64,000 nt of DNA from an uncultured Gemmatimonadales bacterium (GTDB taxonomy: Bacteria > Gemmatimonadota > Gemmatimonadetes > Longimicrobiales > RSA9): the NCBI GenBank assembly GCA_963783305.1, contig CAWAMW010000002.1, positions 256,001 through 320,000 of the forward strand, written 5' to 3'. Numbering within the stretch: position 1 is the first letter of the stretch; every line of letters begins with the position of its first letter. The position numbers are program-made. Of the stretch, positions 15,001 to 36,000 are shown in pieces.

Positions 15001-18000
15001 GAGGGTCCGGTTGAACAGCGGGTCCACCCGCTCCAGGATGCCCAGCGACCATGGCAGCAGGAACCCGATGAACGACACCGCCACGCCGAACGACGCCAGG
15101 CACCACATGGCGTACGAAGCCACGGAGATGTGCGCGAGCAGCGGGATCCGCTCACCCGGGTGCTCCTTCTTCCAGCCCCGGAGCGTGATGAACATGTTGG
15201 CCGCGGCCACGTACGTGCTCACCACCAACAGGATCAGCCCCAGGTAGTACGTCCAGTGCGCCTGGAGCGGCGCGTAGGACGTGTACAGCACCGACGCCTG
15301 GTTGGACGCCACGGCGTAGATGACCAGGATGTTGGCCACCAGCAACAGCCAGAAGCTGCCGTGGATGAGCCCCCCGTTCAACGGCCGGTTCAGCGCCCGC
15401 GAGGTGAGCAGCGGGAGGAAGCCGTTGCTGAAGGCGAACGTCATGAACAGCACGTTCGCCACGCCGTGCGCTGTCAGCCCCTGGTAGTAGCCTCGGAGGC
15501 CCGGGAAATACGGGAGAATGTTGATCCCGGCGTAGCTCAGCGCCTGCGCGAGCCCATGGGCCACGCCCGCCGCCAGCGCGAAGTAGCCGATGTAGATGGT
15601 CCAGCGCAGCATGCGGCGGTGGCCGGCGGGGAAATCATACCCGGTCGGATCGTAAACGACGGCCGTGCTCATCCCGCCACCTCCCCTTCCACGATGACCT
15701 TACCCCACATGTTGTGATGTCCAATCCCGCAGAACTCGTGGCAGATGATCAGGTACTCACCCGCCTCATCGAACGTGTACTCCACCCGCGCCACCTGCCC
15801 CGGCAGGAGCATGACGTTGAGCCGTGTCCCCTCGACGTGGAACCCGTGGATGACATCGGCGGACGTCATCAGAAACGTCACCTCCGCGCCCACCGGAACC
15901 CGCACCTCCCCCGGTGTGAACGACCACGCCTGCCCGAGCATCACCACCTCGTACTTCCCCGGCGCCGTCTCCCGCACGCCCGGGTTGTCGAACGGCGGGA
16001 TGGACCGGACCTGCAGCGGATCGATCCGCGCCACGTCGTCGGGCAGCGAGATCCCCATGGTGTAGGACGTGAGCGCCAGGGTGATCATGAAGACCACCAG
16101 CATGCCCGCCCCCACGTAGAGGAAGGCCTTCTCGTAGGTGTGGACTTTCATCGGCTCACCGGTTCAGCAGGGTGAAGTACATGATCCCCCACATGCCGGC
16201 GAGCGCCATGAGGAAGACGATCATGATGAACAGGGTGCCCGTGGTGGTGGGCTCCTCGTCCGGTGGCAGCTCGGAGGGGTCGAACTCGGCGTCGTGAGGG
16301 GGGCGCTCGGCGTCACCCTTCATGGGGGGTCTCCTGGTTGTATTGGCTGGTGCGCGGCGTCAGCGGACGTCGATACGGCGGATGGCTCGGGACAGCATGC
16401 CGAGTAACAGCAGGAAGATCAAGAGGATTGCGAGCGTGCCCAGCAGGCGTGGGGTTTCGAAGCGCCCTGCCAGGAGCTCGTTGATCGTGGTCCACAGGTA
16501 GTACACCATGGGGGCACCCACCACCACGAACGACGCAATGAAGCCGATGAGCGCTCCGGTCCGGAGTCCCGGTTCCTGCGTATCCACCTCAGCCATGCTG
16601 GCTCCCGGTCTGGGGGAATGGAAAACCGGTTCGACCATGGGTCAGGTTCAGGTCAACTCAGCTTCGGCCCTCCGGCCGGTCACCGCAACCCACTGCTCGC
16701 CGTCCAGGCGCAGCATGGTCCACACATTGATGGTGTCGCACGCGGGGCAGTGGGCGTGGGTGTCATCGATGATTTCGAGCTCCTGCACGCGCTCGCACGC
16801 TTCGCACACCGCCCGCACCGTCTCCAGCCGCTCCGGAGCCATACCGCTCCGGGCGAGACGCACGCCCATGACCACGCGGGGGAGCGCCGAGACCGCGCAC
16901 CGCTCTCCCGTGCACTGCGGTCCGAAGTCCAGGCAGACCATGTCCCCACCGTCCGGCAGCGTGGCGTGCCCACTGCCGTGCAGCGGCTGCGGCGTGACGG
17001 TGACCGTGACGTCGTGGTTGCACTTCGGACAGAACACCTTGCGCGATTCCATGGCTTCCTCCTCAGGACTGGGTCCGGAGCCCGCTCTGGTCGAGGTTCT
17101 CCTCCATCTGCTTTGGCGGCACGCCGAACAGCGGGCAGAGCGCGCCCGTGCAGGTATCGCCATGAGCCAGGCAGACCATGGCCTCCCCGGGGATCGGCTC
17201 CCCCGGCTGGGGCTCATAGCCGGGCTTCAGGGTGACCTTGACCTCCCGATCGCAGGCCGAGCAGTAAGCGAGGTGCGTCTCCATGATGCCTCCTGGTCTG
17301 GTCTAGGCAATGTGCAGGAGATCGGCGCTCCGGTCCACGCTCGCGATTACGCGGCGCGCACCCTCGTCGGTCTCCCCGAATACAGCCGTGCCGGCGGCAT
17401 CGGCCATCATGCAGCGGTCCGCGGCCACGGTGACGCTCCGCATGGCGCTCCGCCGGGGCTCACCCGTGCGCGGGTCCAGCAGATGGTGGTAGCGGCGACC
17501 CTCGTACTCGAAGTACTGCTCGTAGTCGCCGGACGTGGCGATCGCCCGATCACTGATCCGGAACGTCGCCGCCAGCTTCCCGGCGTCATCGGGATCGCGG
17601 ACGCCCACCTCCCACGCGTCCCCGTCCTCCGAGACCCCCAGGGCGTACAGGTCCCCGCCCACGTTCACCAAAGCGTTCTGCACGCCCCACTCCCGCAGCG
17701 CGGCCACCGCGCGGTCCACGCCGTAGCCTTTGGCGATGCCGCCCAGGTCCAGTGCCACATCCTCATCACGATAGACCACGACCGGCGAACCGGAATGCTC
17801 GCCGAGCTCCAGCTCCCGGTAGAGCGACGCGCCGGCGAAACGACGCAGCTCGCCGGCGGCGGGGGGGGCCGCGCGATGGCCCACGTCCCAGAGCTCGACC
17901 GCCCGGCCCAGTGTGGGGTCGAATGCGCCCTGGCTGGCCTCCGCCCAGACGAGCGCGGCGGACACCACCTCCGCGGTCGCGCCACTCACCGGCACCGGCC

Positions 18001-33000: not shown

Positions 33001-36000
33001 CACTCGTGGCTTCCGCGTCCGCTTCGTCTCTTTTGTTACGGTCGTCATCACCGACCTCGGATGAGGGTCCTCACAATCTTCGACTCCAATATGACCCCGT
33101 CGGGGAGGTGCCACTGTCGGGGTCGGGTGGGAATTCTCGTGGGGAGAGGACGGTATTGGAGGGTAGGGGATTTCCCCAGGCGCCCTCAGGAAACGGCCTA
33201 CGAAACGCTCACGATGACGGGAACCACACTACACGGCGCTGCCGTTGTCCGCCCCGTCCGGGGTCGGACGGGGAGAGAACAACGGGCTCCGTCCACCCAG
33301 GAGGCTTCCGCCCCGCGGTGGCGGCACCCTGGCGACAGGGCGGATGATCACGTAGAGGGAGGATGCATCACGGGGAAAGCCGGGCGGCTGGAGGCCGCCG
33401 CCGTGAGCACCGTCCTGCAGGGTACACGGGGGCCGGTGCGGATACACCGGGGCGCGCGGGCCGGAACGGCCCCGCGGGTGAGAAGAGGCGGGGGACCCGC
33501 CCGGGTCCTACTTGTGCCGGTAGACGATGCGGCCGCGCGTGAGGTCGTACGGGGAGAGCACCAGCGTCACACGGTCGCCCGTGAGCACACGGATCTTGAA
33601 CTTCGACATTTTCCCCGCGGCGTACGCCAGCACCTCGTGGCCGTTCTCCAGCTCCACTCGATACATCCGGTCCGGGAGCACGTCCGTCACGACGCCCTCC
33701 ATCTCGATTCCTTCCTGTTTCGCCATATCGCCTGTCTCGTTTGATTGATACTCCGGGTCCGCTCCTCATACCCGGGGCGACCCCATCCGTTCGTCCGGCT
33801 CGCTCAGCCCACCTTGGCCACGTTCTCCGCGGCCGGACCCTTCTCGCCCTGGACCATGTTGAACTCCACCCGCTCGCCCTCGGCCAGCGATTTGAACCCC
33901 TCGCCCTGGATCGCCGAGTGATGCACGAAGCAGTCCCTCTCGCCCCCCTCGGGCTCGATGAATCCGAAGCCCTTGGCGTCGTTGAACCACTTCACCGTTC
34001 CCTGCGTCCGCATGATCGTCGTGCTCCCGATTTCCGGTCCAAAAAGAAAAGCGACCCCGGGCCAACCGCTCACCCCAGATCGCTAGACTCACGGGTTCCC
34101 GCCTGCCGCCCGGACGATCCTCTCGTCCGCGCCAACGTTAGGCGGTGCCCGTAGTGGAGTCAAGAACGCCCGCCCTACCCGGTGATCGTCACGGGGACCG
34201 GGTTGGTCAGCCGCACCTCCTGCGTGTCCCGGATGCGGTTGATCACGCGCTTGAACCAGTTGGGCGGCCGTTTCTCACCCCCGTGCTCCATCACGATCCG
34301 GGCGACCCGGAGCACGTCCGCGTTGCTCATCCGCACGCACCCGTGGGACGCCGCCTCCCCGAGCTCGGAAACCGAGCGCGTGCCGTGGATGTAGAAGGTG
34401 GGCGCCCTGAAGAACATCTTCACGCGACCCATGGGGTTGTTCCACCCTGGGCCCACCGGCTTCTTGCCCCGCGCCCAGTCCGAGTCGGGCGGGTTCCAGC
34501 TCGGGTTCCACACCATCCAGTCGATCTGGTAGGATCCCGTGGGCGTCGGGTGCGCCGAAGACCCCACCGTGACCGGGTGCGTCTGTGTCACCACCCCGTT
34601 CTCCACCACGGACAACGTCCGCTCCGACAGGTCGACCTCCAGCCGCAGGGTCGCCGAAGGCAGCCCGGTCGAGGACGATCTCGGCGTCGAGAACGCAAGC
34701 AAACCCACCGCGGCCGCCAGAACCACCGCCATTATTCCGAGAATGAAACGTTTGCTCACTGTTTGCTCCGTCCGTGATCTCGCCATAGGTCCCCTTTTCA
34801 CAACGGCTTACAGTGCACGAAAGGGGCCACGGATACCGGCAGCGCGCGGCCGCCGTTGCACCGCTCCACGCACCATCGCGACCGGGTATTTTGCCCCTCT
34901 GAACGACGGTGATACGAGGAGGGTCGGCCGACCTGGGTGTTACCGCTCGCCCACGGAACACCTCTTGCCCCCGCACGAACCCATGGAAATCCATCTGAGC
35001 ACCGACGAGAGTATCCGCCTCACCGATAGCGGCCCAGGGCTCGCGTTCGAGCCGGGCGAGGCGGAATCGCTGTCCCCGTTCCATCTGCTGGCCGCCTCGC
35101 TCGCCACGTGCACCTATTCAGTGCTCCAGAGCTACGGGCAGCACGCCAGGCTCCCGCTGGACTCCCTCGCCATCGATGTGGCCTGGACGCTCGGCGGGGA
35201 CCCGTTCCGCGTGATCGACATGGAGATGGTCCTGCACTGGCCAGGCCTCCCCCCTGCGCGGCGAGAGGCGGCCCGACGCGCGGCTGCCCACTGCACGATC
35301 CACCAGACGCTGGGCCACGACCTCGAAGTCCGCACCCTCGTGGACGAGCCCGACGCCAGCCCGTGAGCCCCGACGCCGGCTCCAGCCCATGGACCGTGGT
35401 CTACGACGGCCGGTGCCGCGTCTGCATCCGGTCCGTGAACCTGCTCCGCGACTGGGATCGCTACGGCCGCTTCGAGCTGGTCGCCTACCAGTCCGCCGGG
35501 GTGCCCGAGCGGTTCCCCCGGATCGCGCCGGAGGAGTTCGAGGCCTCCGTCCAACTGATCGGCCCGCGCGGCGAACGCCTCCAGGGACCCGATGCGGTGG
35601 AAAAGATCCTCCAGCTCACCCCCCGGACCCGCCCCCTCGCCTGGCTCTTTCGCGTCCCCCTCGTCCGCCCCCTCGTACGACGCGCGTACCACCTCTTCGC
35701 CCGCAATCGCGGCTTGTTCGCCTGCGATGAGCACTGCGGCATCGTCTGACGCCGCACCCACGCTGGCCCGCCGGACCCCCGGCAGCGTAGTATCCCGGGA
35801 AATGCGTGAATCCTCCGAACCCGGAGCCATACGACGATGGCCATGCCCGACCGCCCCGCTCTTCGTTCCCCATCCACACGCTCGACCGCCGCGCTCTTCC
35901 TGCTGACGGCGGCCGCCCTGCTCCTCCCCGCCGGGGCCGCGGCGCAACACGCCCTCGCCGCGGGTGGAAGCTACGACCCGGCGGTGCCAACCCCCGCGAG

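Follow-up and report, generated by a model that had tools for sequence, protein, structure and literature searches.

An Rnf operon of Gemmatimonadota with a ferredoxin-tethered pyruvate:ferredoxin oxidoreductase and a predicted KorA-binding pseudo-enzyme

Rnf complexes and 2-oxoacid:ferredoxin oxidoreductases (OFORs) are usually pictured as connected by a pool of soluble ferredoxin. The canonical Rnf complexes of A. woodii and T. maritima have six subunits, with RnfB as the ferredoxin entry and flavinylation by ApbE, and in the sections of PMC7414866 that concern them they are fed by soluble ferredoxin, with no mention of a donor enzyme within the operon. In the gill symbiont of Solemya velum, the rnf2 operon (rnfBCDGEA) has genes for pyruvate:ferredoxin oxidoreductase (PFOR) between rnfB2 and rnfC2, and the authors infer that pyruvate is the electron donor of Rnf (Dmytrenko et al. 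2014, PMC4287430). This placement of PFOR is thus already in print, mentioned in passing, in one sentence that is silent on an extra ferredoxin domain, on korAB, and on a gene like X, described below. In tubeworm symbionts, rnf clusters are co-located and co-transcribed with por, and korAB lies beside a PFOR (Rubin-Blum et al. 2019, PMC6315080); this was interpreted as ferredoxin recycling for carbon fixation, in passages that describe neither the gene order, nor a tether, nor a pseudo-subunit. The rnf cluster of Ignavibacterium album, in the published passage on it, has a layout different from that reported here, and the relevant parts of PMC11636981, PMC6593406, bioRxiv 10.64898/2026.01.22.701106, and PMC11316326 contain nothing about such a gene arrangement. 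Among the OFOR architectures in the sections of PMC12337175 on this subject, there is no third, cofactor-less subunit such as X. The characterised PFOR of M. marinus was considered as a possible long form and ruled out, as it is described there as having two subunits.

We analysed a window of 64,000 nucleotides (positions 256,001 to 320,000 of contig CAWAMW010000002.1) from an uncultured Gemmatimonadales bacterium. Gene calls and family searches found all eleven genes named in an earlier note on this DNA at the place and in the order it gave, on the minus strand, as korA-korB-X-rnfB-PFOR-rnfCDGEA-apbE. A Cys-rich peptide is encoded between rnfA and apbE, and this ORF and two Zn-ribbon-like ORFs after apbE are additional to the note's gene list (Table 1). 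The gene spacing is −11 to +4 nt throughout, except for 122 nt from PFOR to rnfC. A promoter scan gave 0 sites, and terminator-like sites number 9, where 4.9 are expected, with most of them lying within genes. In a single RNA run, 5% of the words were present, and the assembled contigs mostly had less than 90% likeness; the run provides no evidence of expression.

Table 1. Features of the operon, with positions in the window
Feature	Position	Strand	Description and evidence
korA	31108..33048	-	646 aa; 2-oxoacid:ferredoxin oxidoreductase alpha subunit, domains III-I-II; TIGR03710
korB	30164..31111	-	315 aa; beta subunit, TPP domain; TPP_enzyme_C
X	29188..30174	-	328 aa; predicted adaptor that binds KorA; paralogue, lacking cofactors, of the TPP domain in the long PFOR
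X residues 50-72	29959..30027	-	conserved motif, predicted KorA docking; complex model interface
rnfB	28338..29183	-	281 aa, 20 Cys; membrane anchor, FeS and polyferredoxin part; TIGR01944 above cut-off
Long single-chain PFOR	23197..28341	-	1714 aa; inserts, C-terminal helices, linker, ferredoxin; Pfam domains
PFOR linker, residues 1571-1631	23449..23631	-	disordered; pLDDT <50, low conservation
PFOR tethered single-cluster ferredoxin, residues ~1635-1714	23197..23439	-	phmmer, Foldseek, 4 Cys
rnfC	21563..23074	-	TIGR01945, 522 bits (cut-off 246)
rnfD	20487..21566	-	TIGR01946, 314 bits (cut-off 207)
rnfG	19753..20490	-	TIGR01947, 92 bits (cut-off 102); FMN_bind
rnfE	19058..19756	-	TIGR01948, 231 bits (cut-off 213)
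rnfA	18480..19061	-	TIGR01943, 220 bits (cut-off 229); best match
50-aa ORF	18331..18483	-	one membrane helix and Cys-rich tail; probable maturation peptide
apbE flavin transferase	17303..18334	-	PF02424, E 9e-78
Zn-ribbon-like ORF 1	17063..17284	-	73 aa, small, Cys-rich; paralogue of ORF 2, blastp E 9e-5
Zn-ribbon-like ORF 2	16648..17052	-	134 aa; Zn-ribbon families below cut-off

The set of Rnf subunits B, C, D, G, E, and A is complete, and a genome search found no other Rnf/Nqr genes. The best NCBIfam match of each is an Rnf model, with scores above the cut-off for B, C, D, and E and slightly below it for A and G. The F-type c subunit, which we take to lack the Na+ motif, hints at protons, but this concerns the ATP synthase and not Rnf itself. 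KorA and KorB match two-subunit 2-oxoglutarate enzymes (OGOR; M. marinus 6n2n, S. tokodaii 5b46/5b48) over their full length. KorA scores 527 bits with TIGR03710 (cut-off 483), and its closest solved chain is the M. marinus OGOR (6n2n_A, E 5e-78). KorB, with 236 bits, is below the TIGR02177 cut-off of 262; its closest solved chains are the S. tokodaii enzymes, and in the alignment to 5b48_B its Cys and GDG motifs are retained. The active-site motifs of the pair line up with those of 6n2n and 5b48. The likely substrate of KorAB, which lacks a ferredoxin domain, would be 2-oxoglutarate.

The long PFOR has the domain order I-II-III-V-VI of single-chain PFOR from M. thermoacetica (6cin) and D. africanus (1b0p), and its TPP/Mg, substrate, and cluster motifs align to both. 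It is about 500 residues longer than they are and differs by insertions within domains V and VI, helices at the C-terminus, a linker, and a fourth cluster domain. T47, E80, R130, D1223, D1250, T1251, and N1256, for which we presume the catalytic roles and the D. africanus numbering, are invariant in 45/45 sequences, as are all 16 cluster cysteines, including the 12 for three [4Fe-4S] clusters. The score of 408 bits with TIGR02176 does not reach the cut-off of 911, and in terms of sequence the enzyme is a divergent subfamily of single-chain PFOR. The extra ferredoxin-type domain that had been claimed for its C-terminus is borne out by a Fer4_13 match at residues 1639-1691. The CxxCxxC...C motif and the fold of this tail match single-cluster ferredoxin of the D. 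africanus Fd I type (phmmer E 0.0012 with ferredoxin I; Foldseek match 1fxr, rmsd 0.9 over 58 columns), and its 4 Cys are kept in all 45 sequences. In the predicted structure, the ferredoxin domain has pLDDT >90, while the preceding linker, 65-104 residues long in 40 of the 45 measured, is below 50. The net charge of the tethered ferredoxin is −6 to +6, compared with −17 for a free FdxA-type ferredoxin encoded in the genome and −19 for soluble RnfB, which would fit a dedicated partner. Shorter proteins bearing the PFOR tail were also sought, and most of those found were fragments at contig ends.

What is X? It has no match in Pfam or NCBIfam, and the earlier note likewise gave it no family match; its GC3 of 0.92 is of the coding type, and 482 relatives were found among 8000 candidates scored. 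Its listing as an unknown protein is now superseded, since hhalign traces it to the TPP domain of this PFOR (P = 84%, E 7.5e-6 with the PFOR C-terminal half), of which it is a dead duplicate, and it has a predicted KorA-binding motif. A duplicate of KorB was ruled out (hhalign P = 0.4%). The X profile matches the same PFOR region in 44/45 sequences, with a median of 8.2 bits, while reversed and shuffled controls reach at most −0.3. Three bridging forms of 497-524 aa, encoded at the place of X, share 26-30% identity with PFOR 1163-1554 (E 1e-36 to 1e-42), and the X profile gives them 46-57 bits. A quick tree of domain VI, which does not discriminate one origin from two, groups X and the bridging forms with PFOR, apart from KorB, on very long branches. 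Fold searches with X also rank PFOR first, weakly (best Foldseek E 4e-3), and the fold match by VIA has Z = 6.7 and rmsd 10.7 with 196 aligned. The TPP/Mg motif is lost; the aligned position keeps just an Asp-Gly pair, the Asn loop is deleted, and a GDG string occurs in 17 of 68 rows when counted anywhere in X, regardless of position. The Cys ligands of the proximal cluster are likewise absent, as no column in the 68 rows exceeds 16% Cys and 19 rows are Cys-free. These comparisons indicate that X and the PFOR TPP domain are paralogues, X being the one without cofactors. An ESM Atlas search with X gave no usable match, and longer fused forms of 610-2000 aa were not found among 7999 candidates, which is weak evidence.

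A complex model of KorA 232-622, KorB, and X was made from alignments that we supplied. It represents a single alpha-beta protomer from which KorA domain III is left out, and in its alignments and its three chains it differs from the calibration of the tool. It has an ipSAE of 0.81, against 0.00 for the best of 3 controls; the ipSAE mark is reached by 116/157 solved pairs and by 2/215 mismatched pairs. Between runs the contacts agree to at least 76%, with partner pLDDT of at least 77. The modelled contacts are those of X residues 50-72 with KorA alone, and the value falls to 0.00 when KorA is replaced. This segment has a conservation of 0.78, compared with 0.59 for the whole of X, and X folded alone has pLDDT 58-71 across residues 41-80. 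The KorA patch, at residues 374-393 and 493-501, could be buried within the alpha2-beta2 dimer, and its residues are not more conserved than the remaining KorA (0.75 vs 0.83). A strict pattern of the X motif matched 1 of 6 distant X-types, and three more align by eye. The model predicts that X docks on KorA with residues 50-72.

X had earlier been counted in 4 of 40 phylum genomes, which is in line with the 26 of 151 here. X, the long PFOR, and the RnfC type of this operon occur together in 25 of the 151; beyond those, one genome is interrupted by a contig end and one has a truncated PFOR alone, and in nine genomes with a distant Rnf both X and the long PFOR are absent. The order korA to apbE, which had been called identical, held in 80/80 X-bearing loci (Gemmatimonadota, Planctomycetota, and one Verrucomicrobia-labelled bin) as far as the contigs extend, but not in Gemmatirosa kalamazoonensis, where apbE sits between rnfG and rnfE. 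KorB and X are adjacent in 78/78. In a set of 80 metagenome loci, korB occurs in nine, with an X-type gene next in six; the other three, L106 (cut), L162 (degenerate PFOR N-half next), and L164 (unclear next gene), were not assigned an X-type, and the 71 loci that lack korB yielded no such gene. An X-type gene accompanies korB even where korAB is inverted (L128) or lies behind rnfB (L097, L103, L111). Gene neighbourhoods thus show a linkage of X to korAB. Operons that join PFOR to Rnf but lack korAB and X are common (Persicobacter, and 10 metagenome loci with at least 5 kb before rnfB), so X is not needed for the core.

Gene order, co-occurrence, and the tethered ferredoxin give good support to the view that oxoacid oxidation is functionally coupled to Rnf, perhaps by a direct wire to the pump. 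We suggest, with a probability of about 0.6, that the operon encodes an anoxic, energy-conserving module that leads from oxoacids to Rnf, in which a ferredoxin swings and X is an adaptor for KorAB. Pyruvate would be oxidised by the long PFOR and another 2-oxoacid, most likely 2-oxoglutarate, by KorAB. The electrons would leave through the ferredoxin leashed to the PFOR C-terminus, which would swing to RnfB, and Rnf would hand them to NAD+ and export ions. X arose by duplication of the PFOR C-terminal half and no longer binds TPP or Fe-S; it would today be an adaptor whose motif grips KorA, drawing KorAB into the module. The candidate for the attachment of X and PFOR to each other or to Rnf is an amphipathic helix at the C-terminus, common to X and the PFORs. 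The direction of flow, the substrates, the contact of ferredoxin with RnfB, and this attachment we can only infer. An anoxic role fits the rest of the genome, which has pyruvate and 2-oxoglutarate dehydrogenase E1 genes together with dsrABD/apr/qmo. More tentatively, PFOR, KorAB, X, and Rnf might form one membrane particle, an 'oxoacid respirasome' in which the pseudo-enzyme X docks and one swinging ferredoxin arm serves two oxidoreductases and RnfB. Such an arm would be the anaerobic counterpart of the lipoyl arm in dehydrogenase complexes.

It is unlikely that the genes are merely co-regulated through a shared anoxic need, with enzymes that meet Rnf via the free ferredoxin pool, a C-terminal ferredoxin that is a convenient fusion, and an X that aids the stability or oxygen protection of KorAB with no link to Rnf. 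In operons of Gemmatimonadota, Planctomycetota, and the Bacteroidota type, PFOR keeps its place immediately ahead of rnfC, and the tether is retained in 75/80 metagenome loci as well as in the 45/45 aligned sequences. The one PFOR found in a genome without Rnf (G180) has lost helix, linker, and ferredoxin, maybe in one deletion. In favour of co-regulation, korAB-X is sometimes inverted, relocated, or absent, and the host has oxidases, a ba3-type next door to the operon. The D. africanus PFOR, in the part of PMC12337175 on it, has a shielding C-terminal extension. The tether is also dispensable in 4/80 metagenome loci (L106, L165, L174, L176, three of them close kin), where PFOR without linker and ferredoxin lies directly before rnfC. 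These loci, and the free ferredoxin, in a genome with two other oxoacid oxidoreductases in need of a free carrier, speak against strict wiring.

Improbable, too, is the same wiring run in reverse, with the ion gradient and NADH driving Rnf to reduce the tethered ferredoxin for carboxylation of acetyl-CoA and succinyl-CoA, in acetate assimilation or a reductive TCA branch. The carriers here belong mostly to heterotrophic groups (Gemmatimonadota, Bacteroidota), which argues against it, while the two NiFe hydrogenases and the reductive-type Dsr of the genome would suit it. Such a flow was suggested for the tubeworm symbionts, which transcribe two rnf clusters together with por (in the passages of PMC6315080 on them), and PFOR is reversible according to the relevant section of PMC12337175; the sentence of Dmytrenko et al. 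(PMC4287430) interprets the same layout as flow from pyruvate to Rnf. We doubt that X forms a hybrid PFOR-Kor dimer, paired pseudo-symmetrically with the PFOR TPP domain instead of, or before, KorA, because X goes with korAB where korAB leaves PFOR and the complex model puts X on KorA, although X derives from that domain, of which it still has the helical bundle and the terminal helix, and P0163 (457 aa, one sequence, possibly a deletion product) joins X to a PFOR-like tail and ferredoxin. Both contacts of X may exist.

The operon has been kept in several phyla, which is suggestive of a private wire with a pseudo-enzyme as its adaptor. If this module exists, it would explain how facultative anaerobes prevent the leakage of low-potential electrons, and it would add a new OFOR architecture. 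It is testable in two cultured carriers, Gemmatirosa kalamazoonensis KBS708, with the full operon, and Persicobacter psychrovividus NBRC 101262, a natural control with no korAB and no X; the predicted X-KorA interface names exact residues for mutation.

The 50-aa ORF, which we take to resemble NqrM, has FeoB_associated as its sole family match (E 0.47, below cut-off), and the NCBIfam search gave none; a similar ORF follows rnfA in 9 of the 10 loci listed. The first Zn-ribbon-like ORF begins 18 nt from apbE, and the second is the usual last gene in Gemmatimonadota, closing the operon in 9/10 loci that reach that far.

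The genes that the earlier note had placed in one operon are all read on the minus strand in the order korA, korB, X, rnfB, PFOR (1714 aa), rnfC, D, G, E, A and apbE. A Cys-rich ORF of 50 aa separates rnfA from apbE, and two small Zn-ribbon-like ORFs come next after apbE on the same strand. Eleven of the first 13 gene junctions are overlaps or spacings of at most 11 nt, and the two wider ones are PFOR-rnfC (122 nt) and apbE-ORF (18 nt). Named hits put the source genome in Longimicrobiales (Gemmatimonadota), and genome-wide it has no Rnf/Nqr genes other than these. The gene order is also conserved: in the best 80 of 173 loci picked with X (Gemmatimonadota, Planctomycetota and one Akkermansiaceae-labelled bin), korA to rnfA is never interrupted as far as the contigs extend, korB and X are adjacent in 78/78, and rnfB and PFOR, by best match, are at most 300 nt apart in 70/71. 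The operon is real and conserved; its parts are known, and there is a fair chance that they form a new kind of enzyme-pump assembly. We take the 50-aa ORF to be NqrM-like, and it may be an Rnf maturation factor. The second Zn-ribbon-like ORF is retained at the operon end in 9 of the 10 loci reaching that far.

Coordinates of the operon and other features (window positions unless a locus is named)
Feature	Position	Strand	Remark
Operon, korA to apbE	33048-17303	-
50-aa ORF between rnfA and apbE	18331-18483	-	One membrane helix and Cys-rich tail; similar ORF in 9 of 10 loci printed
Two paralogous Zn-ribbon-like ORFs	16648-17284	-	Operon end
Small membrane ORF, COX2 and COX1 genes	13999-16638	-	ORF starts 9 nt past the last Zn-ribbon ORF; COX genes presumably ba3-type
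882-aa LigD-like DNA ligase	9912-12560	+	Identified from motifs by eye
1500-aa PFOR of genome G180	L177 8111-12613
285-aa NAD-binding oxidoreductase gene	L096 22130-22987		In the Persicobacter-type operon, flanked by rnfA and rnfB; also in Bacteroidota-type loci
Second, distant korAB pair	L089 4073-6524; L090 4018-6655		About 33% identity; immediately upstream of the operon
Degenerate PFOR N-terminal half	L162 2-745	-	After korB; E 5.6e-7
Sulfate-reducer type gene set	L191-L192 (G000:C16:74000-114000)		Source genome; ORFs assigned by eye

Dmytrenko et al. 2014 (PMC4287430), in a single sentence of the accessible text, mention PFOR genes between rnfB2 and rnfC2, and the accessible part of the supplement of Rubin-Blum et al. 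2019 (PMC6315080) has por-rnf co-transcription. Neither the tethered ferredoxin nor X nor the korAB-X front was found described in a search with thin coverage of subscription papers, and no biochemical study of the operon turned up in the literature searched.

X is present in 21 of 61 relatives. In 151 phylum genomes, X and the C-terminal half of the long PFOR are each present in 26, RnfC is present in 34 (25 at 63% identity or more, 9 of a distant type at 40-44%), and all three occur together in 25; these counts are no statistical test because related genomes are not independent. One genome, G159, shows korAB-X-rnfB-PFOR and then the contig end. The PFOR of G180 (one contig, 99% complete) ends before the helix, linker and ferredoxin; after it comes the gene that usually closes the operon, of the second Zn-ribbon-like type, and no RnfC match was found in this genome at 1e-40. 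This lone PFOR looks like a deletion relic. The cultured Gemmatirosa kalamazoonensis carries the full gene set, with a PFOR 64% identical. A second cultured carrier, Persicobacter psychrovividus, has PFOR-rnfCDGEA-NAD-binding gene-rnfB, with no korAB or X in its 29-kb locus and no korB on that replicon.

The Persicobacter PFOR was used to pick metagenome loci. In the best 80 of 590, korB was found in nine, and an X-type gene comes next in six of these, including one with korAB-X directed away from rnf and three with korAB-X behind rnfB. Of the other three, one is cut, one continues with a degenerate PFOR N-terminal half, and one has no clear call. No X-type ORF was found in the 71 korB-less loci, many of them with short flanks. 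X goes with korAB.

All domains of the long PFOR align with the PFORs of M. thermoacetica and D. africanus, with additional inserts; the TIGR02176 score is 408, under the cut-off of 911. It is probably active, because all 45 full-length sequences share seven active-site residues, a further conserved Glu and 16 Cys. An AlphaFold2 model covering residues 1005-1714 contains the TPP domain, two helices (one of 52 residues and a short terminal one), a linker (1571-1631, pLDDT <50) and a ferredoxin (pLDDT >90). The latter resembles D. africanus ferredoxin I (rmsd 0.9 over 58 columns; phmmer E 0.0012), which bears out the extra terminal ferredoxin-type domain of the earlier note. The domain carries almost no net charge (-6 to +6 across 45 sequences), in contrast to the free ferredoxin of the genome (-17) and to soluble RnfB (-19), to which it is opposite in kind; we infer an adaptation to a fixed partner. 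The ferredoxin is kept in 75 of the best 80 of 590 PFOR-picked loci, and one locus is cut; in four the PFOR ends without it right before rnfC, which counts against its being obligatory.

X, for which no family match had been reported, indeed has none in Pfam, NCBIfam or Atlas, but its profile and a set of bridging forms tie it to the PFOR TPP region. It has 588 representative relatives at E ≤0.001. The X profile matched the PFOR of the same operon at residues 1167-1244 and, across 45 PFORs, picks out that region in 44 (median 8.2 bits; control maximum -0.3, with 35 reversed and 16 shuffled reported). A profile-profile comparison scored P=41%, which deeper alignments raised to P=84% (E 7.5e-6, 153 columns); KorB reached only P=0.4%, and an origin of X as a KorB duplicate was rejected. 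Structure searches with the folded X (pLDDT 86.5) put PFOR at the top, with Foldseek (E 4e-3, no hit at 1e-3) as with VIA (Z 6.7, 196 aligned at rmsd 10.7, chain 812-1170), either result being weak alone. Three metagenome proteins of 497-524 aa, located after korB, bridge X and PFOR: they match PFOR 1163-1554 at 26-30% identity (E 1e-36 to 1e-42) and the X profile at 46-57 bits, and are without cluster Cys and TPP motif. Judged from its sequence, X cannot be an active beta subunit, because it has no conserved Cys and no Asn loop. In L162, korB is followed by the degenerate N-terminal half of a PFOR, suggesting that whole dead PFORs are among the X-types. Separately, in P0163 (457 aa) the X body continues into a helix, linker and ferredoxin of PFOR type, as a natural fusion or deletion product.

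A three-chain model of KorA 232-622, KorB 20-300 and X 1-295, with custom alignments, gave an ipSAE of 0.81 (best of three controls, 0.00); the mark is attained by 116/157 solved and 2/215 mismatched pairs, counts that apply only approximately to such a model. The runs share at least 76% of contacts, with partner pLDDT of at least 77, and the score is lost when KorA is replaced. Confident predicted contacts place X 50-72 on KorA 374-393, 419-422, 445-447, 493-501 and 543-549; none to KorB is confident. The model might instead recall a solved alpha-beta pair, but this is unlikely because X 50-72 lies within a helical insert absent from solved chains. The segment, poorly ordered in the model of X alone, has a higher conservation (0.78) than the remainder of X (0.59), and its pattern occurs in 61/68 X sequences and 0/45 PFOR inserts; only one of six distant X-types matches the strict pattern. 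Identity over the KorA patch, which may be buried in the alpha2-beta2 dimer, is 35-61% for nine operon-type KorAs but 13% for two unlinked paralogues; its conservation is not above that of KorA overall.

The genome encodes pyruvate and 2-oxoglutarate dehydrogenase E1, two NiFe hydrogenases, a four-subunit oxoacid oxidoreductase, an IOR-like oxidoreductase and a free ferredoxin, and oxidase genes adjoin the operon. A facultative anaerobe would use the operon in the absence of oxygen, oxoacid oxidation with ion export being likelier than the reverse. Sulfate-reduction clusters are on record for marine Gemmatimonadota in the accessible part of PMC11316326. The sulfate-reducer type set found here comprises dsrABD, dsrL, dsrMKJOP-like genes, dsrC, sat, aprAB and qmo, and is co-resident with the oxidase in one Longimicrobiales genome.
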